Below the pieces are notes generated by a model. It worked only from the letters and a program-made list of their open reading frames with translations, was not told the origin of the DNA and made no database searches. A stretch of 43,163 bases of DNA from Patescibacteria group bacterium (lineage in GTDB: Bacteria > Patescibacteriota > Minisyncoccia > Phycocordibacterales > Zambryskibacteraceae). A program made the translations under genes and the position numbers. Numbering within the stretch: position 1 is the first letter of the stretch; the number at the start of each line of letters is the position of its first letter. Location of the stretch: positions 1 through 43,163 of the forward strand of contig JBBUBA010000022.1 of assembly GCA_038058485.1 (NCBI GenBank). The letters are read 5' to 3'. This document shows positions 2,581 to 37,830 of this stretch, one piece after another.

Positions 2581-2940
2581 TTAGAGTCCCGGTACAGATG
2601 GGATACCGCCCGTAACTTGACCACCAGTCTGAACTCCAAGTGAGCCAGCGATGAATCCTACTAGACCCCAAACTGCAACCATGACGAAGAGAGCAATAAT
2701 ACCGTATATCATGATGCTTTTGCCTTCGGCTTTTGATTCCTCATTGCCAGCAGCAAAAATAAACTTCATCAAGCCCCAGAAGAAAGCAAGGAGCGCTAGG
2801 CCGACAACTATAGGAAGGGCCGCAGAGACCAGCCTACTAATAGAGCCAAGCAGAACCTGAAGATTGTTTAAATCTGGAGAGCCTTGGGCTAATGCCAAGC
2901 TAGGAGCGAAAGCGAGGGTGGCGTATAGTAATTTTTTCAT
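2581..2940 (-). CDS. VirB2/TrbC-like pilin paralogue 2 (signal peptide)
   Basis: Start taken at MKKLLYATLAF...ALAQG (signal peptide). Core FFWGLMKFIFAAGNEESKAEGKSIMIYG followed by a second TM. Confidence 0.7.
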   Translation of the reverse strand: MKKLLYATLAFAPSLALAQGSPDLNNLQVLLGSISRLVSAALPIVVGLALLAFFWGLMKFIFAAGNEESKAEGKSIMIYGIIALFVMVAVWGLVGFIAGSLGVQTGGQVTGGIPSVPGL

Positions 2941-3038
2941 GTGTCTAACTAACAAATGTTATTTGTAATATACCGGGAAGGGTATGACTATATGATACCC
3001 CAGAGTTCAGTAACTTCAACACGGCTATCCACTACAAG

Positions 3039-3410
3039 CTAGATGGATGCACTAGATCCTTGATTCCACCAACCTCCTCCTTGTGGTTGATTGACACCAT
3101 CAATACCTAACTCCTTTTGGAAAAATCCGATAATCCCCCAAACTGCTACCATTACAAAGAGGGCAACTAGTCCCCACTTCATTAGATTCTTTCCTTCCTC
3201 GATAGCCTTCTCATCTCCTCCAATCTTGAAGATGAACTTGACGAGCCCCCACATAAAGACAAGTAGAGCCAGACCTGCAACCACTACAATAGCCTGCCTT
3301 GTCAAACTGCCAACAGCAATAATAAGCTCTCCTGTTTTCGTAAGCTGAGCAAAAGTTACTAAAGGAAAAAGCAAAAGCCCTACTGGTAATATGTTTTTGT
3401 ATAATTTCAT
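3039..3410 (-). CDS. VirB2/TrbC-like pilin paralogue 3 (signal peptide)
   Basis: Signal peptide ..TFAQ. Core FMWGLVKFIFKIGGDEKAIEEGKNLMKWG followed by a second TM. Confidence 0.7.
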   Translation of the reverse strand: MKLYKNILPVGLLLFPLVTFAQLTKTGELIIAVGSLTRQAIVVVAGLALLVFMWGLVKFIFKIGGDEKAIEEGKNLMKWGLVALFVMVAVWGIIGFFQKELGIDGVNQPQGGGWWNQGSSASI

Positions 3411-3420
3411 TTAATTTCTA

Positions 3421-3708
3421 TTATTGTCCTGTCGGCAATACCGGTATGCCGAATGGTCTGCTGAAGCCGATGTCTCGGTAAGCAAACCTGATGATCCCCA
3501 CAAATGATAGCATCACAAAGAGAGAAATTAATCCCCATATCATCAAACTCTTACCCTCCTCATGACTCTTAGTGTCGCCAGACTTAGCTATGAACTTCAC
3601 TATCCCCCAGACGAAAATGAGAGTTGCTAGACTAAAGAGTACTGGCAATGCGAGCATAATAAGTCTTAAGAAGATTACTACCAACTCGGATAAATTGCTT
3701 GGAGGCAT
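3421..3708 (-). CDS. VirB2/TrbC-like pilin paralogue 4
   Basis: Core FVWGIVKFIAKSGDTKSHEEGKSLMIWG followed by a second TM. Its ATG overlaps the stop of the upstream gene (TAATG). Confidence 0.7.
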   Translation of the reverse strand: MPPSNLSELVVIFLRLIMLALPVLFSLATLIFVWGIVKFIAKSGDTKSHEEGKSLMIWGLISLFVMLSFVGIIRFAYRDIGFSRPFGIPVLPTGQ

Positions 3709-4157
3709 TATGGTGTCGATCTTAGAGAATCAATAGTGCCAGTAATAACATTAGTTAGTACTACAGCCCCAAGTAATATGGCTGTCCCGATAACGGTATA
3801 GAGGAGAGCCCTCTTGGCTGTCTCAAGTTTGGTCGGATCTCCTTGAGCTGTGACAAAGAGAAAACCAGACCAAATGAAAGCAATCACCGCTACCACGCCG
3901 GCCAAAGGCAAAAGCACTTTCTCTACCACTGCTTTGATAAATTCAGGAAGACTATTCCCAAAATTGAAAGGATTGGGGATGCTAGTGTTCACTCCCTGGG
4001 TGTTTCCCCCTCCATCATTTCCGGCAGTAGGACCTCCTCCATCCTGCGCAGGAGGTGGATCTTGCGGATCATTGGGTAAATCAGCGCGAACCGCAGAAAC
4101 TCCAGCACCAGAAGACAAAATCATCATTAGAACCAAAGTTAGAAAAATTTTTTTCAT
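3708..4157 (-). CDS. VirB2/TrbC-like pilin paralogue 5 (signal peptide, P/G-rich linker)
   Basis: Signal peptide, P/G/D-rich region, then AFIWSGFLFVTAQGDPTKLETAKRALLYTVIG followed by a second TM. Confidence 0.65.
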   Translation of the reverse strand: MKKIFLTLVLMMILSSGAGVSAVRADLPNDPQDPPPAQDGGGPTAGNDGGGNTQGVNTSIPNPFNFGNSLPEFIKAVVEKVLLPLAGVVAVIAFIWSGFLFVTAQGDPTKLETAKRALLYTVIGTAILLGAVVLTNVITGTIDSLRSTP

Positions 4158-13336: not shown

Positions 13337-13361
13337 ACCACAGAGGATCCTCCTATGGGGT
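13337..13361. repeat. left copy of a perfect 25-nt direct repeat ACCACAGAGGATCCTCCTATGGGGT
   Basis: Identical 25-mer at 14648-14672. Confidence 0.95.
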
Positions 13362-13699
13362 TAATCGTGATTTCTTTCTAAAACTCGATGAATGGTACTC
13401 TTAGCAACTTTGGTTCCTTGTCTTTCTAGTTCTAGATGTATCGCTTCAATACATCTCTTATTTTTTCTTCTTATATCTAGAATCTTTTCTTCCAGCTCTC
13501 GTGGTATTTTTCCTGGAACGCTCTTCGGAACAGGAGATTGAGTGAGTATCGGCACATCTCCAACCTTCTTAGCTTTCCTAACCCACTTCATGATAGCTGT
13601 GTGGTGACACCCGGTGTACCTAGCGATCTTTCTGGCACTCCAGCCCTCGAAATACAGTCTGGCAACATCCCTCCTAATCCGAGGCATGTTCTTATTCAT
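13361..13699 (-). pseudogene. IS481-type transposase, N-terminal HTH part only (no DDE domain)
   Basis: MNKNMPRIRRDVARLYFEGWSARKIARYTG..ILTQSPVPKS..EEKILDIRR..STIHRVLERNHD resembles IS481-family N-termini. The frame stops exactly at the left repeat. Confidence 0.6.
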
Positions 13700-13766
13700 G
13701 ATGTATGACATTACTCGATAATAAATCACCAAAGCGGTGCCAAGGTGGTGGAGGATTACGTACCAC

Positions 13767-13795
13767 TTGACAGAACAAACTAAGTATGATAGTAT
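13767..13795 (+). promoter_or_regulatory. promoter TTGACA-17-TAGTAT (cassette C1)
   Basis: Hexamers with a 17-nt spacer. AGGAGA SD upstream of the ATG at 13875. Confidence 0.5.
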
Positions 13796-13874
13796 GGAAA
13801 GGTAGTTCTTTGGCAGTATCCCGGCCGAGAGGCCACTCACAAAACCCGAGAGGGTTAACCAGGAGACTGGCTCC

Positions 13875-14279
13875 ATGTTCGAAATTCCGGATGACATCGC
13901 GGCACAACTCCGACTGGGTTCGAAGAACCTTGATCGGATGAGTGGAGACATCAACGATACCGTCAGAATAGTCTTCGGTCTCATCAACATCTTCACTCTC
14001 GATGATGTTGGGATTATCATCAAGACCCAGGATTTAATCTGGACGATACGTGGTAACAAGGGCGAACGATCGATCGAGTTGCTTGAAGTGTCAACGAACG
14101 CGGCAATTCTTTGGAATCAGAGCCCGTGGACAAACAGAGACGTGGGAAGTCGATTGGTCCAGTCTACTCATGAATCTCTGGACCACTTTGTTTCTCAAGT
14201 CTTGAGAGAGTGTCCCATTGTAGTTTCCGGTACACGACACTACAAGGCTCTTATCAGGGCCGCCAAGAAGCAGTTCTGA
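13875..14279 (+). CDS. hypothetical soluble protein, 134 aa
   Basis: ATG with SD. Plus-strand polarity is supported by the promoter and the strong downstream terminator. No family recognised. Confidence 0.55.
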   Translation: MFEIPDDIAAQLRLGSKNLDRMSGDINDTVRIVFGLINIFTLDDVGIIIKTQDLIWTIRGNKGERSIELLEVSTNAAILWNQSPWTNRDVGSRLVQSTHESLDHFVSQVLRECPIVVSGTRHYKALIRAAKKQF

Positions 14280-14438: not shown

Positions 14439-14615
14439 ATGAGTGAGAATGATGAGCTTCCAACACACCTCTGCCACTACTGTGGCAAAACCTACACAGG
14501 GCCACTCGGCCAGCATGGTTGCGCTGAACAACTCGCGGAAGTAGCGAGGATGAAAGCTCGGAGAGATCGGCGCTATGGCAAGCTAGGTGCCATCAAGACC
14601 GCGAACGAAAAGTAA
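14439..14615 (+). CDS. 58-aa Cys/His-knuckle mini-protein (HLCHYCGK...HGC) with a basic tail
   Basis: ATG at 14439 lies 5 nt after GGAGA. Terminator hairpin overlaps the stop. Confidence 0.5.
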   Translation: MSENDELPTHLCHYCGKTYTGPLGQHGCAEQLAEVARMKARRDRRYGKLGAIKTANEK

Positions 14616-14647: not shown

Positions 14648-14672
14648 ACCACAGAGGATCCTCCTATGGGGT
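14648..14672. repeat. right copy of the perfect 25-nt direct repeat
   Basis: Identical to 13337-13361. Ends 4 nt from the pth stop codon. Confidence 0.95.
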
Positions 14673-14675
14673 AAA

Positions 14676-15164
14676 TTACCCGTTGAATTGGGTTTGGGCT
14701 GATTGGAGACTGTCGGAGATTATAACTTCCACTGCAGTCACGACATTTTTGAAAACTTTTTTGAGGGTTTCCTTTTCGGTTGGAGTAAATTTGCCCAGAA
14801 TGTGTTTTTCTATATCACTCTTCTTCCCTATTCCAATTCTTATCCTAATAAATTCTTTAGTTTTGACGGCACGAATAACAGACTCAAGACCTTTGTGCCC
14901 GCCAGAGCCTCTGTTCCAAGATATTTTCATCGTTCCCACCGGTAAATCTAAGTCATCATGAATGACAATCAATTTCTCGGCTGCCTTCTTACTTTTGATT
15001 ACTTTAGCCACAGCTACTCCCGATTTATTCATAAATGTGTCCTGATGAATAAACTTGGCCTTCACCTCTTTCTTTTCTAGAGCCTCAACTGCCATCTTTC
15101 CCGTGTTGTGACGAGTTAGAACATACTCTTCGCCCGGATTGCCTAGTCCAATTATTGTGTACAT
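14676..15164 (-). CDS. pth: peptidyl-tRNA hydrolase
   Basis: MYTIIGLGNPGEEYVLTRHNTG.. N-terminus. Start taken at this Met rather than 15182. Confidence 0.9.
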   Translation of the reverse strand: MYTIIGLGNPGEEYVLTRHNTGKMAVEALEKKEVKAKFIHQDTFMNKSGVAVAKVIKSKKAAEKLIVIHDDLDLPVGTMKISWNRGSGGHKGLESVIRAVKTKEFIRIRIGIGKKSDIEKHILGKFTPTEKETLKKVFKNVVTAVEVIISDSLQSAQTQFNG

Positions 15165-15194: not shown

Positions 15195-15779
15195 ATGGAA
15201 CCGAATACCACCCCTGCTCCTGTTCCAGAGAAAGAAACAAGTTTTTGGAAGGAATTAGTGAAGCTGGCAGTGATTGCCGTGGTTATCATTATTCCCTTTC
15301 GTCTTTATATCGCACAGCCATTCGTGGTAGATGGAGCCTCAATGGATCCAACCTTCAGAAACGGGCAGTATCTCGTGGTGGATGAGTTCTCCTACCATTT
15401 TAAGACCCCCATTAGAGGATCTGTGCTTATTTTTAGATACCCTAAGGATCCTAAAAAATATTTCATCAAGAGAGTGATTGGACTTCCAAATGAGCAGGTA
15501 GCAATCAACAATGGGGAGGTCACAATTATAAATACAGATAATCCAAAAGGATTCCTTCTCAATGAACCATACGTAAAACTAACAAAGGACGAAACTGAAA
15601 CTTACATTCTCAAAAGTAAGGAGTACTTTGTAATGGGAGACAACCGCGCTGGCAGTGCTGACTCGAGACTTTGGGGCCCGGTACCAGAGAAAAATATAAT
15701 TGGGCGCCCAATTGCTCGCCTTTGGCCTCTTGGTCTTTGGCCAGGAGTAGAACCAGAATACACAAATGCGTCCCATTAG
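15195..15779 (+). CDS. lepB: signal peptidase I
   Basis: N-terminal TM, catalytic-Ser box DGASMDPTF and GDNRAGSADSR box. Confidence 0.9.
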   Translation: MEPNTTPAPVPEKETSFWKELVKLAVIAVVIIIPFRLYIAQPFVVDGASMDPTFRNGQYLVVDEFSYHFKTPIRGSVLIFRYPKDPKKYFIKRVIGLPNEQVAINNGEVTIINTDNPKGFLLNEPYVKLTKDETETYILKSKEYFVMGDNRAGSADSRLWGPVPEKNIIGRPIARLWPLGLWPGVEPEYTNASH

Positions 15780-15847
15780 AAGCTCACTAGTACAAGCTAT
15801 GAAATTAAATCATTATCAGAAAGTAATAAGCACTAGCTTCTAACGGG
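15772..15847. repeat. 76-nt element X bounded by 13-nt inverted repeats CCCATTAGAAGCT / AGCTTCTAACGGG
   Basis: The left arm overlaps the lepB stop. The right arm abuts the ATG at 15848. 15762-15852 matches the reverse complement of 34942-35032 at 86 of 91 positions by hand alignment. Confidence 0.85.
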
Positions 15848-17002
15848 ATGCGCAAAACTGAATTTGATAAGCCTCTTTGGATAGCAGCTCACTTCGGCTT
15901 TGTGCCGATGGAGGCTCCATCAATCTCGGAAGAGGATGTTCGAATGACTAAAGACTGCATGCCTGCGCATGCAGGCGATGAGAAGATTGATAAGGCTTCT
16001 GGTTCACCCCGCCTTGGCGGGGCAAGCCTCATCTGTAACGCTCCAGAGAAGGCTGCCTTTATTCGTCATTGCGTTGAGAAAAAACTGTCAGAATCCCTCT
16101 TCCCTCTTGCTCTATCTTGGCGCAGAGGCCGAGATTATGCACTCGAGCTGGTGGGCTACCCCATAGGAGTGGCCGAGGCCAAACTCATTCGTGCTTCCCT
16201 TTCAATCCTAAACGAAGAAGGTTACAAGGATCTGAAGGTTGAGATAAATTCCATCGGAGACAAAGACTCCATCATGGCCTACGAACGAGAGCTCCACACA
16301 CACCTGCGTAAGGCTGGACATGACTTATCGACCGAACTGAAGAAAATTTTTAAAGAAGATATTTTTGCTTTGGCTAAAGCTCAAGGTGAGGAAGCGGAGA
16401 ATTTGAAGAAAAATATGCCTTCTTCTGTGGCTAGTCTCTCGGCACCGAGCAGAGTGCAGTTTAAAGAAGTCATAGATTATTTAGACGCCTTAAAAATAGA
16501 GTATCGCTTTGCCCCAGAACTCGTTGGACACAAAAATTTATGTTCGGAGACTTTATTCGCAGTGAGAGATGCTGAAAACCGCCTCCTTGCTGGAGGCTAC
16601 AGATATTCAAGACTTTCAAAACGCTTTGGTTTCAAAAAAGAACTTTCCTTAATTGGAGCTACGATTTATGGCGAGAAGAAAATTAAGGATGTCAAAGTCT
16701 ACAAGGAAGCTCCTAGAGCTAGGTTCTATCTGGTGCACCTAGGCCGTGAGGCTAGGATGAAGGCCCTGTCCCTCATAGAGCTCCTGCGCTCATGTCACAT
16801 ACCAATCTATCACTATCTGGGCAGAGATAAGCTTGCAGACCAAATGCAGAGCCCAGAAGCCATACGTACACCGTATCACTTGATTGTCGGACAAAAGGAA
16901 GCTCTCGACAATACTGTCACCATAAGAAACGTTGGCAGTCGTGCTCAAGACACAATTGAAATGGCTCGCCTTCCCGACTACCTCAAGCATTTGCCGATTT
17001 GA
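15848..17002 (+). CDS. HisRS/HisZ-like class II aaRS paralogue (divergent)
   Basis: FGFVPMEAPSISEE resembles motif 1. The C-terminal anticodon-binding-like region reads LIVGQKEALDNTVTIRN. The canonical RYERPQ-type segment is not evident. Confidence 0.55.
   Translation: MRKTEFDKPLWIAAHFGFVPMEAPSISEEDVRMTKDCMPAHAGDEKIDKASGSPRLGGASLICNAPEKAAFIRHCVEKKLSESLFPLALSWRRGRDYALELVGYPIGVAEAKLIRASLSILNEEGYKDLKVEINSIGDKDSIMAYERELHTHLRKAGHDLSTELKKIFKEDIFALAKAQGEEAENLKKNMPSSVASLSAPSRVQFKEVIDYLDALKIEYRFAPELVGHKNLCSETLFAVRDAENRLLAGGYRYSRLSKRFGFKKELSLIGATIYGEKKIKDVKVYKEAPRARFYLVHLGREARMKALSLIELLRSCHIPIYHYLGRDKLADQMQSPEAIRTPYHLIVGQKEALDNTVTIRNVGSRAQDTIEMARLPDYLKHLPI
16974..16998. repeat. left copy of a perfect 25-nt direct repeat CCGACTACCTCAAGCATTTGCCGAT
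   Basis: Encodes the last codons (..DYLKHLPI) of the HisRS-like gene. Identical 25-mer at 17430-17454. Confidence 0.95.
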
Positions 17003-17027
17003 CAAACTCAGTGTAGTATAGTAATAT
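16999..17027 (+). promoter_or_regulatory. promoter TTGACA-17-TAATAT (cassette D1)
   Basis: The -35 box starts directly after the repeat and overlaps the TGA stop. The ATG at 17026 from the ORF track lies inside the -10 box. Confidence 0.55.
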
Positions 17028-17064
17028 GCAAGCAGGCTCGAACTTCACTCAACCGGAGGTTTAC

Positions 17065-17319
17065 ATGGTGTTCATTTTCAAGTCTCTTGGCGTCGCGGGG
17101 TTCATCGCTTTGAGCTTCACCGTGTATGCCCTGGTCGGAGGAATTCTGACTCTCTTCCATGTCGCTCAACACGGCTCCCTGTCACAAGTAGTGATAGTGG
17201 TTGCACTGGATACCATGCTGATTCTGATCATTGTCGGCTTCGTCAAGTTCCTCGTATACGCATGGAAGAATACCGATCGCATCGCATCTGGCAAAATCGC
17301 AACTCCCTTCAGCTCCTGA
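17065..17319 (+). CDS. 84-aa two-TM mini-protein
   Basis: ATG lies 5 nt after GGAGG (AACCGGAGGT context). Two hydrophobic helices. GC3-rich codons. Confidence 0.6.
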   Translation: MVFIFKSLGVAGFIALSFTVYALVGGILTLFHVAQHGSLSQVVIVVALDTMLILIIVGFVKFLVYAWKNTDRIASGKIATPFSS

Positions 17320-17351
17320 CAAAATTGGGAGCTTTTTCATACAAATTTCAC

Positions 17352-17373
17352 AACATACGATATATCGTATGTT
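17352..17373. repeat. perfect 22-nt palindrome AACATACGATATATCGTATGTT
   Basis: Seen directly. Lies between the D1 stop and the right 25-nt repeat, with no T-tract after it. Confidence 0.9.
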
Positions 17374-17429
17374 AATAACTACACGTCATAATTTTGCTAC
17401 CGCACAACATTGACGTATGAGGAATTTCA

Positions 17430-17454
17430 CCGACTACCTCAAGCATTTGCCGAT
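17430..17454. repeat. right copy of the 25-nt direct repeat
   Basis: Followed by A TAA, so ..DYLKHLPI-stop can be read here too. Confidence 0.95.
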
Positions 17455-17514
17455 ATAAATAGCGTATTTACTGAACTCTGCAACATCATATCAGACACTA
17501 ACCGGAGGTAGCAA

Positions 17515-17739
17515 ATGAAAGCTCTTAAGCTCCTCTTCATTATCGGAGGCATGGTGGAGGTTGGAATAATCAGCCTTTCCACCGCCTTCGCTGTGAAAAT
17601 CATCGAGGTAATCACCACTCTCGACAGCTTCACGCTGGTAAGCGTGACCATCATCTGGATACTGATGGTCATGGTCTCCATCGTGTTCGGCTACGTGCTC
17701 TACATCGGTTGGAAAGTGTACAAGAAGATGCCTCGCTGA
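17515..17739 (+). CDS. 74-aa two-TM mini-protein (same architecture as 17065-17319)
   Basis: ATG preceded by AACCGGAGGT, as for D1. Two hydrophobic helices and a basic C-terminus. Confidence 0.6.
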   Translation: MKALKLLFIIGGMVEVGIISLSTAFAVKIIEVITTLDSFTLVSVTIIWILMVMVSIVFGYVLYIGWKVYKKMPR

Positions 17740-17764
17740 ATGCCCGCGAAATGATGCCCCAACT

Positions 17765-17800
17765 AGCCGGGCGAATCTAGTACAGATTCGCCCGGCTTTC
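17765..17800 (+). terminator. GC-rich hairpin, probable terminator
   Basis: AGCCGGGCGAATCT / AGATTCGCCCGGCT 14-bp stem followed by TTCACG (weak T-tract). Confidence 0.55.
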
Positions 17801-17845
17801 ACGTTATTGCAGGCTTAAATATATTGTGTTAGAGTTTCCCGACAA

Positions 17846-18097
17846 ATGGTAAATATTGAAGTAATTAAAGGTCCAAACGAGAACAATTTAAGCGTCCTGA
17901 GACGCTTCCAAAAGCGCGTCCAAGGTGCTGGGATTTTGATAAAAGTCCGTAGCAAGCGCTACAGCGAGAGGGTCAAGAGCGAGAACGTCAAAAGAGCTAA
18001 GACTCTGGCTTATCTCGTGAAAAAAGAAAAAATAAACGAGCTCCTTAAGCTAGGAAAAATGAATGAACTCCAAAAGTTTGGTAAGAAACGCCGATAA
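17846..18097 (+). CDS. rpsU: 30S ribosomal protein S21
   Basis: Short basic protein. ..NLSVLRRFQKRVQGAGILIKVRSKRYSERVKSE.. is S21-like. Confidence 0.75.
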   Translation: MVNIEVIKGPNENNLSVLRRFQKRVQGAGILIKVRSKRYSERVKSENVKRAKTLAYLVKKEKINELLKLGKMNELQKFGKKRR

Positions 18098-27138: not shown

Positions 27139-28185
27139 GTGAAAATTCTTGCTATAGAAACTAGTTGCGATGAGACGGCGGTAGCCATACTTGAGTGTAA
27201 TGGGTCACTTCCCTTACCGACTTTTAAAGTGCTAGGGAATTCCTTAATGTCACAAATTCAAATTCATGAAAAGTATGGGGGTGTTTACCCGATGCTGGCA
27301 AAGCGAGAACATATAAAAAACCTTCCCATTTTGCTTGAAAAGACTTTAGTGGAATCAGGAATCAAGAATCACGAATCAAATGAGATAGATTATATAGCAG
27401 TCACAGCAGGCCCTGGGCTCGAACCAGCACTCTGGACAGGCATAACTTTTGCCGAGGAACTTGGAAGAAAGTTTAGCAAGCCAGTCCTTCCAATAAACCA
27501 CATGGAGGGGCACCTCATGTCTTTCCTGTTCAATGCCACGAAATCTTTGATGCTACCCGCTATCGCCCTTCTTGTTTCAGGGGGGCACACTGAACTTGTG
27601 CTCATGGAGAGCTTTGATAACTACAAGATTATAGGTAAAACTCGAGACGACGCCGTTGGAGAAGCTTTTGACAAAACGGCCAGACTTTTAGGCTTCCCAT
27701 ACCCCGGAGGGCCAAAAATTTCTGGACTGGCAGCCAGAGATAGAAGCAAGAATCAGGAATCGAGATTCAAGTTTCCTCGACCAATGCTCAAAACCGATGA
27801 TTTCGATTTTTCATACTCCGGTCTTAAAACTGCGGTTCTATATGCAATGAGAAAGCTTGAAAAAGTTGATGAAGAGATTAAAGAAAATCTGGCTAGAGCT
27901 TTTGAAGACGCTGCCATAGAACCACTAATAGAAAAGACTAGGAAAGCTACAGAAAAATATTCAGCAAGAAGTATCATCATTGGAGGAGGCGTATCGGCAA
28001 ACACTTACCTACGAAGTGAGCTTAAAAAGCTATGTGAGGAAAATGGTTTGGAATTTCAAATGCCAGAGAGAGCTATAACCACAGACAACGCCATCATGAT
28101 CGGTATCGTGGCTTATGTCCGCTCACTCACTAATCGTCTACCAGAGAAAACTACTATAGCCGCCAAAGGCAACCTTAGCCTCTAA
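27139..28185 (+). CDS. tsaD: tRNA N6-adenosine threonylcarbamoyltransferase TsaD
   Basis: (V)KILAIETSCDETAVAI.., HMEGH, GGVSAN. GTG start right after tRNA-Val. The upstream part of the ORF-track frame overlaps the tRNA. Confidence 0.9.
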   Translation: MKILAIETSCDETAVAILECNGSLPLPTFKVLGNSLMSQIQIHEKYGGVYPMLAKREHIKNLPILLEKTLVESGIKNHESNEIDYIAVTAGPGLEPALWTGITFAEELGRKFSKPVLPINHMEGHLMSFLFNATKSLMLPAIALLVSGGHTELVLMESFDNYKIIGKTRDDAVGEAFDKTARLLGFPYPGGPKISGLAARDRSKNQESRFKFPRPMLKTDDFDFSYSGLKTAVLYAMRKLEKVDEEIKENLARAFEDAAIEPLIEKTRKATEKYSARSIIIGGGVSANTYLRSELKKLCEENGLEFQMPERAITTDNAIMIGIVAYVRSLTNRLPEKTTIAAKGNLSL

Positions 28186-30338
28186 AAAATCTCCTCTTTT
28201 TCGTCTATTTTACTCTCCTCTATTACTATTGTTGATCCCTCGATTGTAGAAACATTACCTTTAGGAGAGAAGATGACCCAAGCTACTGAGAAAATGAGAA
28301 CGACAATGAGGGGGAGGATGAGACAATATTCATTCAAAATGTAGGAAGCGGCAATGGCTCCAAGAAGACCAAGGACAAGAGTGCTCCATCCGACAATGAA
28401 TCTCTTAAGGACATTTTCAGATGTATCAGTATAAAGGACATTCTTAAGAATGGCCCCAAGAAGATAAAGGACAGACAGAATTAAAGCAAATTCGTAAAGA
28501 CACTGAAGTTTATCCCTTAAACTATCTGGCGTAGTCAGGATAGCTGAAGCCAGATTTCTCAAATTTTGTCCTTTATTGATTGGCTCCGCTATTGCCAAAG
28601 TTGAAGTGGAGGTTATGGGCACTAGGGCCGTTAACACCTCTGTAGAAGTGCTGGTCTGGTACCCAACAATCGGTAGTCCGACTCCTCCGCCACTCTGGAG
28701 TAGAGCTCGGTAAACATCAATTTCGTGTTGTTGTTCGGGCGTTATTGCAACATTGTTTCCACAATAGATTTCGTTGACCTTCTTTAGAGTCAGAATGTAA
28801 GCATAGTGAGTGGGAGCTGTCTCGCCCCAAGGAGTAAGTATCTCGTCTTTGTACTTATCCTGGAAGTTCCCAACTGCATCATAGGTAGCTTGATCAAAGA
28901 CACCATTGATAGTCACTGCATCATAGCCCATATAAACCTTAAGGAAGGACTGAAGCTTCATTACCTCTATAGGATCGTTATTGAAATCGATCCTCATGTA
29001 ATCATTTACTAAAGGACAAGCAAATGGAATGGATGGAGGGGGAGAAGAGTGTCTACGACCACTTCCACCACCGCCTCCGCCACCGCTTGGAGGTGTCACG
29101 GGTGACGGTGGAGGAGTGATAGCTAGATCAATCACCACTGTATCACTCGCATTAACTGTACCATTGGTACAGGTGATAGTGATGGTGACAGGAGTTGATG
29201 TAGATGGATAAAAGGGATTACCTGATGCAATTGGAGAACTCGTTCCAACGAGACCTATACCGGAGACTACAGAAGGGCTCATCTGACATGCAGTCGAATT
29301 TGTTGAGGTCCAGGAAAGGATATAGACATCACCAGTCATGAGCGTAATTGGCCCATCGGAACCATTGGCCTTAATATCTACTATCGGTGTGGTAGTCGTC
29401 CCAATGTTTGCAAGATTTATTGTAACAGAATCACTTGCAGTTGTAACTCCATCCGTACAAGAAACCGTAATCGTTATTGGGGTGGTAGTTGAAGGATAAA
29501 ACGGGTTACTAGAGTCTATAGGAGCCGAACTTCCTATAAGAGACATTCCTGACACTATCGCTGGATTCATCTGACATGAAGTGGAATTTAATGATACCCA
29601 AGAAAGAGTATATGTTCCGCCAGGGATCAGTGTAATGGGACCATCAGAGCCGTTGGCTTTGACATCTATTGAGGGAGTGCTAGTCGATCCAACTAATTGC
29701 ACTACCACTGTATCACTCGCATTAACTGTGCCATTAGTACAGGTGATAGTGATGGTGACAGGAGTTGATGTAGATGGATAAAAGGGATTACTCGAATCTA
29801 TCACTGAACTCACGCCATTAAGCGTCACACCAGAAACAGTAGGACTCACCTGTTGGCAGGCGGTGGAATTGGTAGAATTCCAAGTATAGGTGTATGTGCT
29901 TCCAGAACTCAAAGTAACAGGACCATCGGAACCATTAACCTTCACATCGATTGTTGGTGGAGTAATAGGAGCTGGCAAAATAACTATCACGCTATCGGAC
30001 AAACTGGCTCCTCCTGCATCAATACAAGTAACGCTAAAGGTCGTGCTTCCACCAATTGCAGGATAAGAAGCATCTCCAGGAAGAACGGTGAAGGATGCAG
30101 ATGGTGACAACCCAGAAGAAGTCGGCGCAGTTAGCTGGCAGGCAATTGCATCAACTGTAGTCAAACTTACTGTAAAAGGTTGAGTTGAAGTTGAGAGGGT
30201 CAATGAATCCTGATTATCTGCTTTTATATCAACAGACAGAGCTGCTAAAGCAGAGCTTGGAGCAAAACAAAAAAACATAACCACAGCCGTGGAGATAATG
30301 AATAATTTTCTGTAAATTTGGCTTTTGATTAAGCTCAT
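28182..30338 (-). CDS. large secreted surface protein with about 5 Ig-like repeats, a poly-Gly/Pro linker, a peptidoglycan-binding-like domain and C-terminal TM helices
   Basis: Signal peptide MSLIKS..SSALA. Repeated unit ..VDIKANGSDGPITL..Y.LSW.S.NSTACQM.P..SG......NPFYPST..PVTITI.CT.G...ASD.V. Also LQSFLKVYMGYDAVTINGVFDQATYDAV. Confidence 0.8.
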   Translation of the reverse strand: MSLIKSQIYRKLFIISTAVVMFFCFAPSSALAALSVDIKADNQDSLTLSTSTQPFTVSLTTVDAIACQLTAPTSSGLSPSASFTVLPGDASYPAIGGSTTFSVTCIDAGGASLSDSVIVILPAPITPPTIDVKVNGSDGPVTLSSGSTYTYTWNSTNSTACQQVSPTVSGVTLNGVSSVIDSSNPFYPSTSTPVTITITCTNGTVNASDTVVVQLVGSTSTPSIDVKANGSDGPITLIPGGTYTLSWVSLNSTSCQMNPAIVSGMSLIGSSAPIDSSNPFYPSTTTPITITVSCTDGVTTASDSVTINLANIGTTTTPIVDIKANGSDGPITLMTGDVYILSWTSTNSTACQMSPSVVSGIGLVGTSSPIASGNPFYPSTSTPVTITITCTNGTVNASDTVVIDLAITPPPSPVTPPSGGGGGGGSGRRHSSPPPSIPFACPLVNDYMRIDFNNDPIEVMKLQSFLKVYMGYDAVTINGVFDQATYDAVGNFQDKYKDEILTPWGETAPTHYAYILTLKKVNEIYCGNNVAITPEQQHEIDVYRALLQSGGGVGLPIVGYQTSTSTEVLTALVPITSTSTLAIAEPINKGQNLRNLASAILTTPDSLRDKLQCLYEFALILSVLYLLGAILKNVLYTDTSENVLKRFIVGWSTLVLGLLGAIAASYILNEYCLILPLIVVLIFSVAWVIFSPKGNVSTIEGSTIVIEESKIDEKEEIF

Positions 30339-30500
30339 GTTTGCTTGTGTCCCCACCCTACGTCTTAAAAACAAAATAGTCAAGGATTTTTGATTATAAA
30401 AGTCATAAGAGACATTTTTACTAATTTTTAGTGTTTTTGTCCTTTATAATTAAAAGTCCTTTAGAGTTGGGTAGAATTCTTTGTGCTATTATTAAGCCGA

Positions 30501-34565: not shown

Positions 34566-34946
34566 TTATCGGGAGATTATAGCATTCCAAAATCGCTTCC
34601 ACCAAGGCAAATCTTCTGTTGTAGTTGTTGACTCAAGCTGTGGGCGGTCGACTATCACAGCGACCCGCTCGCCTTCACGAGCTACATTAAATTTTGATTT
34701 TATCTCTTCTTCAACCCCAGATTCGGTACCGAGCTTACTCGTTTCCCTAAGCAGAATTTGTTCCCGTTCGGCCAGTGCTGAAGCCCTAAGAGCCAAAGCT
34801 TCGGCCTCGTGAGATGTCTCCCTTTCCTTGAGTACCAAAAAGTAGGTACCCCTAGCTAGTGCCCCAGTAATAATAAGGAGAAGAACCAAGGCCGGTAGAG
34901 AGTAGAGCCTCTTTTTTAATCTTTGTCTATGCTCAAGTTCACGCAT
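34566..34946 (-). CDS. FtsB/DivIC-like septum formation initiator
   Basis: Single TM followed by a coiled coil, then ..EEEIKSKFNVAREGERVAVIV.. typical of the family C-terminus. Confidence 0.55.
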   Translation of the reverse strand: MRELEHRQRLKKRLYSLPALVLLLIITGALARGTYFLVLKERETSHEAEALALRASALAEREQILLRETSKLGTESGVEEEIKSKFNVAREGERVAVIVDRPQLESTTTTEDLPWWKRFWNAIISR

Positions 34947-35022
34947 CCCGTTAGAAGCTAGCGCTTATTACTTTCTTATAATGATTTAATTTCACGGCTT
35001 GTACAAGTGAGCTTCTAATGGG
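34947..35022. repeat. 76-nt inverted-repeat element Y (inverted copy of X)
   Basis: CCCGTTAGAAGCT ... AGCTTCTAATGGG. Abuts the ATG of the FtsB-like gene (minus strand). Confidence 0.85.
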
Positions 35023-35046
35023 ACGCATTTGTTTTTCTATGCTAAC

Positions 35047-35163
35047 ATGACTTTTATGCTATTCGAAAAACGCCACAAACAAAAAATAAAGACTGTCTGG
35101 ATTATCCTTTGTGTCCTCATCATCATCTCGATGGTGCTTCTCTACACCCCATTCTGGCAGTAG
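35047..35163 (+). CDS. 38-aa single-TM mini-ORF MTFMLFEKRHKQKIKTVWIILCVLIIISMVLLYTPFWQ
   Basis: ATG and stop are seen. Its last 83 nt are repeated at 35877-35959, but that copy has no start codon. Confidence 0.35.
   Translation: MTFMLFEKRHKQKIKTVWIILCVLIIISMVLLYTPFWQ
35081..35163. repeat. 83-nt direct repeat, copy 1
   Basis: 77 of 83 positions identical to 35877-35959 by hand alignment. Confidence 0.9.
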
Positions 35164-35876
35164 CTTACTAATCTTTGTCCAACACCGAGTGTTGACCAAT
35201 TTCTTCTATAACTTCCTTTGCAGTACTGCTTGAAACAAATCTTCCATACTGATCTTTACTTTTAAATTGCTCGAGAATAATCTCTGGCTTCAGCAAACTT
35301 CCCCATCTATTTTTATTCATGTAGTCCTCAAAGCTCGACCAAGAATAATCGCTCCACTTTTCAGGGTTTTTGTGAACATAAGCTGATAAATATAGAAGTT
35401 GCTTATCATCCACAATGTGGACAGCTTGATATGGCCCTTGAAAAACGTGCCCTGATTTTTGATATTTTGTATTGTAATATTTTGTATAACTATTCAGAAC
35501 TCTTTGCATGTATCTGGCAATTCCCTTGTCATCAATTTCTTTAACAACTAGATGGAAGTGATTCGGCATCAAACAATAGGCCGTTAGTTCAACGAATCGC
35601 TTTTTGATAATTTTTACTAAATCTTCAGCATCTATGGCAGACACTCGGTGTTGACCAAAAGCTTTCGCCATTCGCCCAACATGCAAAAAGTTTATAGGCG
35701 ACTGAAAAGCAATTATCAGAAATAGAAATCTATAAAAATCGCTTCGATCATGAAAAATATTTTGTTTATTAACTCCTCTGTTATAAAGATGGTATATCTC
35801 GCCTGGAGCAATTCTTATTTGTCTCATTGCTTTATTATAAGGTCAACACTCGGTGTTGACCAGTTGGGGTTATTGT
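35164..35876 (-). mobile_element. IS200/IS605-like (RAYT-type) element between 83-nt direct repeats
   Basis: A single HUH/Y1 transposase gene. Related hairpins (GGTCAACAC-TCG-GTGTTGACC and variants) lie at 35841-35861, 35640-35653 and 35180-35194. Confidence 0.65.
35168..35827 (-). CDS. Y1 (HUH) transposase, IS200-like / REP-associated tyrosine transposase family
   Basis: ..YHLYNRG..AYCLMPNHFHLVVKE..GHVFQGPYQAVHI..LLYLSAYVHKNP. The HUH motif is HFH. Confidence 0.8.
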   Translation of the reverse strand: MRQIRIAPGEIYHLYNRGVNKQNIFHDRSDFYRFLFLIIAFQSPINFLHVGRMAKAFGQHRVSAIDAEDLVKIIKKRFVELTAYCLMPNHFHLVVKEIDDKGIARYMQRVLNSYTKYYNTKYQKSGHVFQGPYQAVHIVDDKQLLYLSAYVHKNPEKWSDYSWSSFEDYMNKNRWGSLLKPEIILEQFKSKDQYGRFVSSSTAKEVIEEIGQHSVLDKD

Positions 35877-35959
35877 AAAAAATAAAGACTGCGTGGATTG
35901 TCCTTTGTGTCCTCATCATCATCTCGATGGTGCTCCTCTACACCCCCTTCTGGAAGTAG
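35877..35959. repeat. 83-nt direct repeat, copy 2
   Basis: See copy 1. Ends 1 nt before the lepA stop codon. Confidence 0.9.
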
Positions 35960-37753
35960 TTATTTATCGGACCGAATCATCTTTAAAAATACGTCTTGGG
36001 GGATGTTGACTGTCCCGCATGCTTTCATCTTTTTCTTGCCTTTTTTCTGCTTTTCACGAAGCTTCATTTTGCGAGTGATGTCTCCCCCATACATATGTTG
36101 AGTCACATCCTTCTTCATCCCTGAAAGACTCCTGGAAGAGATAATTCTACCAAGGGCTTTACCTTGAATCTTTAAGCTAAACATTTGGCGAGGCAGAATT
36201 TTAGAGAGTTTTTCCACAGCTGATTCTGCCTCACCTTCCACTTGTCTTCTTGAAACCACTTTAGCAAAGGCAGCGACCGGTTCGTCTGCTACTAGAATAT
36301 CGAGTCTTGTTACATCCGCATCTCTCTCCCCCACGATGTCGTAGGAAATAGATGCAAAGCCAGAAGTGACACTTTTCAACTTATCAAAGAAACCTCGCAT
36401 TAGCTCTCGAAGTGGCATCTGAAGCGAGAGAGATGTTCTGTCGGCAAGGCTCTGTGTGTCCCCCACTTCCGCCTCATGCTCATATAAAAGTTTTAATATC
36501 TCACTCAAAAATGAAGGTGGAGTTATTATTTTTGCCTCTACCCACGGTTCGCGAACGCTCTCTACCAAATGCTCTTCTGGGAAAAAAGATGGAGTGTATA
36601 TAGTTTCAATTTTTCCGCTTCTCAAGGTTACGTTGTATGTGATGCTCGGCAAAGTGATGATAAGAGGTAAATCAAATTCGCGTCTTAATCTTTCAGAAAT
36701 AATTTCAAGATGGAGCATTCCTAAAAATCCACATCTAAAACCTCTGCCGAGTACTCCCGAAGACTCTTCTTCAAACGAAAAGGATGAGTCAGAAAGCTTC
36801 AAACGTAAAAGGGCTTGGCGAAGTTGAGTAAAGTCATCCTGACTCTCTGGATAAATAGAAGCCCAAACTACAGGACGAGCCTTTTGATACCCAGGCAGAG
36901 GTTCGTGAGTATCAGAGATAGCTGAAACAGTATCACCAACGGAAACAATTCCCGGTTCTTTGATGCCCGTTACGATGTAACCAGTCTCTCCTGCATTCAA
37001 ACTTTCAGCCGGAGTCTCCACGGGGGCAAAGTAGCCAACTTCAAGTGCTTGGAACTTTTTATTTGCTACTTTAAAAATAAGCTGGTCACCCTTTTTGACA
37101 CTTCCAGCCACAGCTCTGACGAAGACTATCACTCCTCTATGTTCAGAATATTTGAAATCAAAAACCAAAGATCTAAAGAGAGCCCCGTCAGTCGCGAATT
37201 TCCCTCCTTGACCGTGAGCGGGTGACGGGACTTTCTTGATAATCTCTTCCAGTAACTCTTTAACTCCTTCACCAGTTTTTCCTGATACCATCATGATATC
37301 TTCTTCGTGCACATTAAGTAGGGCTACAATTTCTTTTTTAACCACTGCAATCTGAGCTAGTGGAGAGTCTATTTTAGATATGACAGGGATAATGGTGAGT
37401 CCTGCATCCTTGGCCATGCCTAGAGTTGTGAGAGTCTGAGCCTGTACGCCTTGGGTGGCATCCACCAAAAGAATTGACCCTTCTACGGCTTTAAGAGCTC
37501 TAGAAACTTCGTAAGAAAAATCTATGTGCCCTGGAGTATCAATTAAATTTAAGGTGTAATCTCCATATTTCATCCTGACGGGTTGCATCTTGATAGTAAT
37601 GCCCCTCTCTCGTTCAAGTTCCATTGAGTCGAGAACTTGTTCTTTCATTTTTCTTTTCTCTATCGTCCCAGTTAACTCAAGCATCCTATCTGCCAGTGTA
37701 GACTTACCATGATCAATATGCGCAATGATAGAGAAGTTTCTTATTTTATCCAT
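35960..37753 (-). CDS. lepA: translation elongation factor 4 (LepA)
   Basis: IRNFSIIAHIDHGKSTLADR, DTPGHIDF and the LepA C-terminal domain. 597 aa. Confidence 0.95.
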   Translation of the reverse strand: MDKIRNFSIIAHIDHGKSTLADRMLELTGTIEKRKMKEQVLDSMELERERGITIKMQPVRMKYGDYTLNLIDTPGHIDFSYEVSRALKAVEGSILLVDATQGVQAQTLTTLGMAKDAGLTIIPVISKIDSPLAQIAVVKKEIVALLNVHEEDIMMVSGKTGEGVKELLEEIIKKVPSPAHGQGGKFATDGALFRSLVFDFKYSEHRGVIVFVRAVAGSVKKGDQLIFKVANKKFQALEVGYFAPVETPAESLNAGETGYIVTGIKEPGIVSVGDTVSAISDTHEPLPGYQKARPVVWASIYPESQDDFTQLRQALLRLKLSDSSFSFEEESSGVLGRGFRCGFLGMLHLEIISERLRREFDLPLIITLPSITYNVTLRSGKIETIYTPSFFPEEHLVESVREPWVEAKIITPPSFLSEILKLLYEHEAEVGDTQSLADRTSLSLQMPLRELMRGFFDKLKSVTSGFASISYDIVGERDADVTRLDILVADEPVAAFAKVVSRRQVEGEAESAVEKLSKILPRQMFSLKIQGKALGRIISSRSLSGMKKDVTQHMYGGDITRKMKLREKQKKGKKKMKACGTVNIPQDVFLKMIRSDK

Positions 37754-37830
37754 CCCGTTAGAAGCTCATGCTTATTAATTGCCTAGTAATATAGTTTGTT
37801 TTTTTCATGTCAGAGGTTGCTTCTAACGGG
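37754..37830. repeat. 77-nt inverted-repeat element Z (same arms as X and Y, different core)
   Basis: CCCGTTAGAAGC ... GCTTCTAACGGG. Abuts the lepA ATG. Shares TAATAAGCAnnAGCTTCTAACGGG-ATG with X and Y. Confidence 0.8.

Follow-up and report, generated by a model that had tools for sequence, protein, structure and literature searches.

Contig JBBUBA010000022.1 (assembly GCA_038058485.1), the whole 43,163 nt of which is referred to here as the window, belongs to a Patescibacteria strain from Hainich groundwater and carries a gene for a HisRS-like protein followed by a gene for an S21-like ribosomal protein. Between these two genes lie a pair of small cassettes, and the last 25 nt of the HisRS-like gene (CCGACTACCTCAAGCATTTGCCGAT) are found exactly twice in the window, namely at the end of the gene itself (copy 1) and again between the cassettes (copy 2). 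Our data show that both cassettes are extra DNA relative to the closest relative, and we postulate that the first of them was captured through homology at the 3' end of the gene. The features of the locus are collected in Table 1.

Table 1. Features of the locus between the HisRS-like and S21-like genes (positions are those of the window; SD, Shine-Dalgarno; TM, transmembrane)
Feature	Position	Strand	Basis or remark
HisRS-like gene, 384 aa	15848..17002	+	ORF (open reading frame); last 9 codons are copy 1
Repeat copy 1 (T1)	16974..16998	+	Attached to the HisRS-like gene; encodes its last 9 codons, PDYLKHLPI
Cassette 1, left end	16999..17027	+	New stop TGA (17000-17002) lies within the -35 box TTGACA (16999-17004)
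SD block AACCGGAGGT of ORF-A, containing GGAGG	17051..17060	+	Sequence repeat
ORF-A, 84 aa, predicted two-helix membrane hairpin, ORFan	17065..17319	+	ORF and AlphaFold2
Terminator-like hairpin with U-run at the end of ORF-A	17311..17333	+	dG -10.9 kcal/mol, z -2.6
Perfect 22-nt palindrome AACATACGATATATCGTATGTT	17352..17373	.	Fold dG -9.4, z -4.2
Repeat copy 2 (T2) plus A TAA	17430..17458	+	Reads ..LPI* in the same register
Cassette 2	17459..17815	+	Absent from the sister species; SD, ORF-B and a strong hairpin
ORF-B, 74-aa two-TM ORFan	17515-17739	+	ORF
Strong hairpin of cassette 2	17765-17797	+	dG -27.1, z -5.6
Renewed homology to the sister species (TAAATATATTGTGTTAGAG), followed by the S21 promoter-like site and gene	17816..18097	+	blastn
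S21-like gene	17846-18097	+	Extended -10 TGT TAGAGT upstream, at 17827-17835

The preliminary description of this DNA, made from the sequence alone, had reported the 25-nt repeat with a ..LPI-stop ending at each copy, and both copies proved to be exact. No third copy occurs in the window at up to three mismatches, and two matches of the 25-mer arose in 0 of 100 dinucleotide-preserving shuffles. Copy 1 is in frame with the HisRS-like ORF and is followed by T TGA (..LPI*). The copies are co-linear through the stop codon, and it is there that they differ (TTGA after copy 1 vs ATAA after copy 2); by our own calculation, the probability of both mismatches falling within the last 4 of 29 positions is 0.015 (6/406). 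No gene similarity was seen on reading upstream of position 17430, and an in-frame comparison yielded a single shared ATG, for which reason a relic extending further upstream of copy 2 was rejected. The 25-mer is unstructured by fold prediction, and no dyad-symmetric or inverted-repeat core was seen in it by reading.

The closest relative is a sister species (90% amino acid identity in the HisRS-like protein and about 82-85% nucleotide identity across the locus), represented by contig L002 (GCA_964357345.1) as well as L092 and L093 from the same wells. In these three contigs the HisRS-like gene ends in ...CCGACTATCTCAAGCATTTGCCGATATAG / ...CCGATATAG, and the S21 ATG follows 27 nt after the stop, which matches almost verbatim the earlier prediction of an empty site with rpsU close downstream. 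The blastn alignment to the sister stops exactly at 16998 and restarts at 17816 (TAAATATATTGTGTTAGAG vs TAGATCTGTTGTGTTAGAG), bearing out the view that the DNA in between is an insertion. This leaves the window with a surplus of 817 nt (16999-17815), made up of the 431-nt cassette 1, copy 2, and cassette 2. Since the sister lacks all of it, both small two-TM ORFan genes are extra, beyond the 456-bp unit that had been described as the insertion; inserted DNA is indeed present, but 456 nt is the period of the repeat, and the unique inserted DNA within that period is 431 nt (16999-17429). The S21 start lies 391 nt past copy 2 because the second cassette is placed between them. The ATAA after copy 2 resembles the ATAG of the sister species, whereas copy 1 has TTGA instead; the incoming DNA brings its own Ile-stop, in agreement with the earlier statement that the insert supplies a replacement 3' end. 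We interpret copy 1 as having arrived with, or recombined with, the incoming DNA, and copy 2 together with ATAA as what is left of the resident tail and its stop codon after their displacement. No repeat was found at the far end of cassette 2, where positions 17790-17815 agree with the 25-mer plus one base at 10 of 26 positions by eye; this was judged to be chance level, and a degenerate third copy was dropped.

Four further contigs of the window strain, one from ENA (L001) and three from Logan (L088, L089, and L090, from sequencing runs ERR3858120, ERR3858121, and SRR32696708), match the window at 100% identity over a span that takes in both copies and both junctions, which confirms that the duplicated tail is real and no artefact. 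All 5 contigs of this strain are in the filled state, and the empty site is known from the sister species, that is, from another strain. Exact look-ups with ORF-B and S21 returned filled same-strain contigs or empty sister contigs, and no same-strain haplotype without cassette 1 was among them.

As to the contents of the cassettes, the signals listed in the preliminary description (a -35 box over the stop, a -10 box, a GGAGG SD, an 84-aa two-TM ORF, and a 22-nt palindrome) are all present. The cassette 1 promoter, predicted from consensus alone, consists of TTGACA, a 17-nt spacer, and TAATAT at 17022-17027 (a 10/12 consensus match). AlphaFold2 models ORF-A as a two-helix hairpin (H2-36 and H39-75; mean pLDDT, 81.6), and the 10-mer AACCGGAGGT that serves it as SD block also precedes ORF-B (17500-17509). 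Judging by these predicted signals, cassette 1 would be a self-contained, moron-like expression unit with promoter, SD, two-helix membrane protein, and terminator, and both ORF-A and ORF-B may be expressed. Phage morons are independent promoter-gene-terminator units inserted between conserved genes and are not defined by repeats of a host gene tail. Cassette 1 is like them in being compact, with a near-consensus promoter, an SD, one small ORF, and a terminator between two conserved genes, and unlike them in its chromosomal context, with no prophage.

Both proteins are ORFans. A search of 5.8e9 clusters returned only self hits for ORF-A, and HMMER against 1.84e9 representatives returned self and one weak match only; for ORF-B, only the self match was found in 5.8 billion clusters. 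Neither ORF was assigned to a family by Pfam, PADLOC, or NCBIfam, and PHROGs gave weak matches of unknown function (E of at least 0.004 for ORF-A). No second copy of the cassette or its protein was found in about 15 billion proteins, phages, plasmids, and IMG/VR, and the 25-mer is likewise absent from IMG/VR; the search for other copies of the 25-mer or of the protein starting at 17065 that had been suggested in the preliminary description was therefore negative in the protein, phage, plasmid, and IMG/VR collections. A phage or plasmid origin of the 817 nt was rejected, as blastn found 0 matches in 50,697 phage and 72,556 plasmid records.

Two further features of the cassettes were observed. 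The 14-nt core of the palindrome, TACGATATATCGTA (17356-17369), recurs in two unrelated Parcubacteria loci. One of them (L056, 4458-4471) again has it within the HisRS-like/S21 gap, and the other (L065) has three copies 77 nt apart (348-361, 425-438, and 502-515) downstream of an 86-aa helix-turn-helix (HTH) ORF; the 20-mer form is absent from IMG/VR. This palindrome is probably a conserved protein-binding site or operator, as its recurrence suggests. In addition, TAAATA is present at both ends of cassette 2 (17456-17461, which includes the relic stop codon, and 17816-17821), and this pair could be a 6-nt junction microhomology, a target duplication, or chance in AT-rich DNA.

Homologues of the HisRS-like gene come from Parcubacteria and Patescibacteria metagenomes. 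A total of 97 loci were fetched, and the order HisRS-like gene then S21 was found in 82 of them (66 distinct). The gap between the two genes measures 24-121 nt in 36 of the 66 distinct loci (empty) and 140-2024 nt in the other 30 (filled). The cargo of the filled gaps is unrelated between loci. It includes Y1 transposases resembling IS200 transposases or REP-associated tyrosine transposases (RAYTs; REP, repetitive extragenic palindromic), as well as, according to labels given on reading the translations, a reverse-strand peroxiredoxin-like gene and Zn-ribbon-like, HTH-like, and lipoprotein-like small ORFs. Because 30 of the 66 loci are filled with varied cargo, the HisRS-like/S21 gap is a lineage-wide hot spot of insertion. 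A family of small soluble proteins (84-97 aa, ...LPDG[FY]VS...), whose likeness was judged from translations without an alignment, occupies the slot in both L005 (5152-5406) and L094 (4149-4442), two relatives of 70-72% identity; the shared family means that some slot cargo is vertically retained within sub-clades.

A scan for gene-tail repeats, covering every filled locus, uncovered one further significant case, L042, which is a 45% amino acid relative and was also recovered from Hainich. Its tail repeat (1663-1700 and 2455-2492) is exact over 26 nt, has 1 mismatch over 31 nt, and has 5 mismatches over the 38 nt that run through the stop. All five mismatches lie outside the 26-nt run (P = 0.0016, own calculation). 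The repeat encloses a gene for a 226-aa Y1_Tnp protein bounded by REP-like hairpins (GGTCAAAGCCGAGCTTTGACC and a variant), and copy 2 runs straight into DNA that aligns to the relatives' native tail and downstream region. The displaced copy thus heads native DNA in L042 as it heads cassette 2 in the window, and in each case the two copies are near identical, as expected for displacement of a 3' end.

Three more insertions flanked by direct repeats were noted. A 29-nt repeat (28/29 identical; 13337-13365 and 14648-14676) lies immediately 3' of the pth stop (minus strand) and has a 1311-nt period that contains an N-terminal fragment of an IS481-type transposase (13361-14059, minus strand) and a Zn-finger-like 58-aa ORF (14439-14615, plus strand). 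An 83-nt repeat (77/83; 35081-35163 and 35877-35959) takes in the 3' part of a 38-aa TM ORF, stop included, and encloses a gene for a 219-aa Y1_Tnp/RAYT-like protein (35168-35827, minus strand). Outside the window, L041 has a 60-nt repeat (55/60; 636-695 and 1530-1589) whose sequence is that of a 212-aa gene's 5' end, next to a truncated Y1 transposase, and this repeat may be another recombination scar. No sequence is common to the repeats of different insertions, and with their differing lengths they are more readily explained by a process that is guided by homology and independent of sequence than by a single dedicated att site. It was also observed that copy 2 of the 83-nt repeat, in the region 35048-35959, adjoins the lepA stop (35960), and that REP-like hairpins (GGTCAACACTCGGTGTTGACC and variants) lie near both ends of the Y1 gene and also in frame in the middle of it (about 35641).

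We postulate, with a probability that we put at about 0.5, that cassette 1 is foreign DNA which was captured via homology and displaced the resident gene tail, and that it is no self-mobile element. The donor, the order of events, and the recombination pathway we infer as follows. The stretch that separates the HisRS-like gene from S21 is a variable slot in Parcubacteria, and the ancestor of this strain would already have had cassette 2 right after the stop codon (...CCGAT ATAA, cassette 2, S21). A related strain would have been the donor, its gene ending in ...CCGAT TTGA with cassette 1 directly behind. Donor DNA, in the form of either a circularised or a transforming fragment, would have recombined by homology in the gene or its tail, with the crossover within, or upstream of, the 25 identical bases, and an illegitimate joint would have attached its far end at a point 25 nt upstream of the stop of the resident gene. 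As a result, the gene would read via copy 1 into the donor's own Ile-stop, and the resident last 25 nt, the stop codon, and cassette 2 would have been pushed downstream as an orphan.

Several observations point to such a capture. The copies differ at the stop and are otherwise co-linear, and therefore the incoming DNA appears to have carried its own, slightly different gene tail rather than a tail copied by fill-in. The empty site in the sister species with its sharp break of homology at the end of copy 1, the second tail duplication in L042, the unrelated repeats around other inserts of the window, and the failure to find an integrase or terminal inverted repeat for a cassette that is unique are in line with capture as well. 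Relatives hold alternative cargo at the same locus, as the 36 empty and 30 filled gaps indicate. Only short repeats would be expected to persist, because long ones would quickly recombine out. In addition, comparable arrangements and mechanisms are on record. Effector-immunity arrays of the type VI secretion system (T6SS) have been attributed to illegitimate recombination facilitated by homology (PMC5361080). In Escherichia coli, circles whose homology had been truncated integrated by single crossover and duplicated 109-950 bp of the target (PMC3240628), and Saccharibacteria, another Patescibacteria lineage, were shown to be naturally competent (PMC10187176). The two repeats would also allow scarless loss of the cassette by recombination, and the gene followed by the 25-mer and ATAAATAG would be the junction form after precise loss of cassette 1.

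A number of points weigh against this capture by homology. A length of 25 nt is at the lower limit for a RecA-dependent crossover, which would make the variant with a circle inefficient, and the variant with a homologous anchor and an illegitimate joint needs a joint that happens to fall inside the gene. No donor haplotype (gene and cassette 1 without copy 2) was found, for which limited sampling may be responsible; a haplotype with cassette 2 alone was not found either, and 5 of the 5 strain contigs carry the full arrangement. No imported tract was seen, the sliding identity to the sister being flat (0.77-0.89) near the 3' end, although a single comparator makes this a weak test. Moreover, no recA or competence gene was seen in the window, and the search for recombinases covers the window, since a scan of GTDB genomes returned only the sister metagenome-assembled genome and one 36% relative. 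Lastly, the relic in L042 ends in an atypical Pro codon, and some of the L042 mismatches may therefore be drift after the insertion.

The closest known counterparts are the C-terminal displacement of rhs and contact-dependent inhibition (CDI) genes and the orphan immunity arrays of T6SS (Jackson 2009, PMC2935791; Kirchberger 2017, PMC5361080). They share with our locus an intact gene followed by new DNA, a near-identical short direct repeat of the gene's 3' portion at the head of older displaced genes, and cargo that varies among relatives at the locus with no dedicated recombinase. The mechanisms proposed for them are also alike, i.e., either homologous recombination by way of circular intermediates or illegitimate joining combined with a homologous anchor. 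Our locus is unlike them in that the gene is a conserved, housekeeping-type aminoacyl-tRNA synthetase paralogue and no polymorphic toxin, and in that the displaced piece is 25 nt of conserved tail and no variable toxin tip. Furthermore, the variable cargo lies wholly after the stop codon and consists of two-TM ORFans with their own promoter and without an assigned family, and the host is a member of the Patescibacteria, or Candidate Phyla Radiation (CPR). Toxin and immunity content defines the rhs and T6SS systems and not their recombination mechanism. Campbell-type integration at E. coli lacZ (PMC3240628) produces the same order of gene, repeat, insert, repeat, and downstream DNA, the length of the repeat being set by the amount of homology that the circle kept; that system involves duplications of 109-950 bp and a plasmid donor, whereas here the repeat is 25 nt and the DNA is natural.

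The preliminary description had called the arrangement the classic footprint of site-specific integration, a designation for which we obtained no specific support, as no integrase, inverted-repeat core, or other copy of the cassette was found. It had correctly noted that the cassette is too small to encode its own integrase (431 nt with only the 84-aa ORF). Site-specific integration would involve a non-autonomous element comparable to pseudo-SCC (SCC, staphylococcal cassette chromosome), for which a tyrosine or serine recombinase supplied in trans by the genome or a helper element would join the attB at the end of the gene to an attP in which the last 25 nt and a stop codon are present as well, the two copies being attL and attR. 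Such an element would account for an exact 25-nt direct repeat around an insert that regenerates the gene's 3' end, for the empty site in the sister species, and for a second hit on the same gene tail in L042. It also has a precedent in staphylococci, in which SCC inserts at the 3' end of orfX (rlmH), leaving the gene intact with direct repeats at both ends, and recombinase-less pseudo-SCC elements without ccr occupy the same site (PMC6243372). SCC, however, needs Ccr serine recombinases and an attB core (TATCATAA within at least 14 bp), and neither a recombinase nor a conserved core was found here. SCC elements measure kilobases, whereas the element here is 431 nt and the far boundary of the second cassette has no repeat, which leaves no regular att-bounded array. 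Neither the cassette nor any of the 24 window ORFs that were scanned with Pfam gave a recombinase match, the 25-mer is unstructured and lacks a visible dyad-symmetric core, and in none of the collections searched do the cassette and its ORF recur, as would be expected of a circulating element. The L042 repeat, moreover, differs in sequence and boundaries, and the three further inserts with unrelated repeats of 29, 83, and 60 nt would require several recombinases. We thus consider site-specific integration unlikely.

A more speculative proposal, and one that we regard as rather improbable, is that Parcubacteria host minimal 'tail-copy' cassettes that home to the 3' end of a conserved gene by means of a carried copy of its last 25-80 nt, using either a trans-acting enzyme (possibly Y1/RAYT-linked) or host recombination and DNA uptake alone. 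If this were true, insertion would be scarlessly reversible, and the HisRS-like/S21 slot would be a recombinase-free exchange site for small membrane proteins.

Transposition with an unusually long target-site duplication, in which cuts staggered by 25 nt are filled in by an enzyme possibly linked to Y1 (IS200/RAYT-like) proteins, appears very improbable. Direct repeats of variable length (25-83 nt) do flank compact inserts, two of which carry Y1_Tnp genes with REP-like hairpins, and the window repeat is identical at 25 of 25 positions. Nevertheless, the resemblance between the copies extends beyond the exact repeat as far as the stop, mismatches included, a pattern not expected from a fresh fill-in, and cassette 1 lacks terminal inverted repeats and a transposase as well as any REP-like hairpin that would match the RAYT of this genome. 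Of the 12 Y1 genes analysed, 10 have no gene-tail repeat; most are flanked by palindromic REP-like hairpins only, and three have no repeat. The Y1 transposases of IS200/IS605 elements are not known to produce a target duplication, which also counts against such an origin.

Local tandem duplication of the gene tail together with a small-TM-gene cassette, followed by divergence or replacement of one copy, is an origin to which we give scarcely any credence. The two units do share a layout (25-mer, about 50 nt, AACCGGAGGT, two-TM ORF), with the 10-nt SD block similarly spaced (92 vs 85 nt from the 25-mer to the ATG), and both ORFs encode two-TM proteins of similar size (84 and 74 aa). The similarity of ORF-A to ORF-B is marginal (Smith-Waterman z 2.6, global z 2.3), however, and BLASTP gives no alignment between them, while the local similarity of the cassette DNA is not above that of shuffles (z 1.2). 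Descent of the two ORFs from a duplicated ancestor could consequently not be demonstrated, and an age sufficient to erase their similarity would not have spared 25 of 25 positions in a non-coding relic.

Lastly, an assembly artefact, be it a collapsed or mis-joined path through the 25-nt repeat or a free circle that was assembled into the chromosome, is extremely improbable. It is true that the data are metagenomic and that one Hainich aquifer study supplied the two clear cases of a gene-tail repeat (window and L042). Nonetheless, the junction from cassette 1 through the 25-mer to ATAA has to be present in reads, and the ENA contig and the three Logan contigs (assembled at what we take to be k=31, at which a 25-nt repeat would be unambiguous) each span both copies and junctions, which also speaks against the mis-assembly that the preliminary description had named as a possible refutation.

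Three classes of element were tried and rejected. An integron cassette does not apply, as neither junction has a GTTRRRY/attC site, no IntI was found in the window, and the sole palindrome is the perfect 22-mer, which recurs elsewhere as an isolated motif. A transposon with target-site duplication was dismissed on the grounds that the ends of the cassette (TTGACAAAC... and ...GGAATTTCA) have no inverted repeat and that there is no transposase. Mobilisation by the resident Y1/RAYT was excluded because the repeat associated with GGTCAACACTCGGTGTTGACC is confined to 35182-35862 and the hairpins of cassette 1 are unrelated to it.

The neighbouring genes also deserve description. We term the upstream gene "HisRS-like" because its product is no clear HisRS: Pfam finds HGTP_anticodon alone, the NCBIfam hisS model scores 100 bits against a cut-off of 287, and HisRS chains in PDB match (E 4e-15) from residue ~91-99 onward. 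There is no recognisable match to the class-II catalytic N-terminal part, and the protein has a 13-aa insertion relative to the 371-aa sister orthologue. We may be dealing with a HisRS that has diverged or with a paralogue that serves a different role. The C-terminal motif LPxYLKHLP[IFL] is kept in the 60 homologues whose C-termini were inspected, and the gene adjoins S21 throughout Parcubacteria. The S21 match is below threshold in Pfam and NCBIfam, and the protein is 100% identical in the sister species. In the empty sister (L002, 4515-4543), the -35 box of an S21 promoter-like site, TTGCCG, sits in the last 25 nt of the HisRS-like gene, 17 nt from the extended -10 TGT TAGAGT. In the window (17807-17835), the partner of the same -10 at equal spacing is TTGCAG, which the end of cassette 2 contributes; this -10 is also kept in L042, L015, and L023.

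Upstream of the HisRS-like gene lies a leader/promoter block of ~91 nt (15762-15852) that ends in ...AGCTTCTAACGGGATG. An inverted copy with 94.5% identity precedes a DivIC-like gene (34942-35032; the Pfam match is sub-threshold), and a partial copy lies upstream of lepA (37751-37785). This block may be a shared regulatory module. Elsewhere in the window, three consecutive small ORFs (2581-4157, minus strand) match T4SS_pilin/TrbC (PF18895 and PF04956) and may belong to the conjugation-like type IV system that Patescibacteria have been reported to possess. A 733-aa ORF with a PG_binding_1 domain (28182-30383, minus strand) contains internal direct repeats at 29134-29964 (88-108 nt at 90-98% identity, plus 51-nt units at 73-75%) and is a predicted repeat-domain surface protein.

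Collectively, the locus adds a case from a CPR bacterium, and from a housekeeping gene, to the examples of a recombination footprint that is already known, and the hot spot in which it lies is newly recognised. A mechanism known from toxin loci is thereby extended to the ends of housekeeping genes in Patescibacteria, and current understanding is not overturned. The locus provides a base-pair-resolved footprint of how genes are added beside essential genes without damage in ultra-small, probably competent CPR bacteria, and one gap, that from the HisRS-like gene to S21, is used for such gene addition across the clade. Four repeat-flanked gene-end insertions were encountered in about 0.5 Mb of related DNA, which suggests that these genomes routinely gain genes through homology-guided capture, and the captured two-helix membrane proteins, which are lineage-unique and strongly signalled, are candidates for strain-specific roles at the surface or in host interaction.

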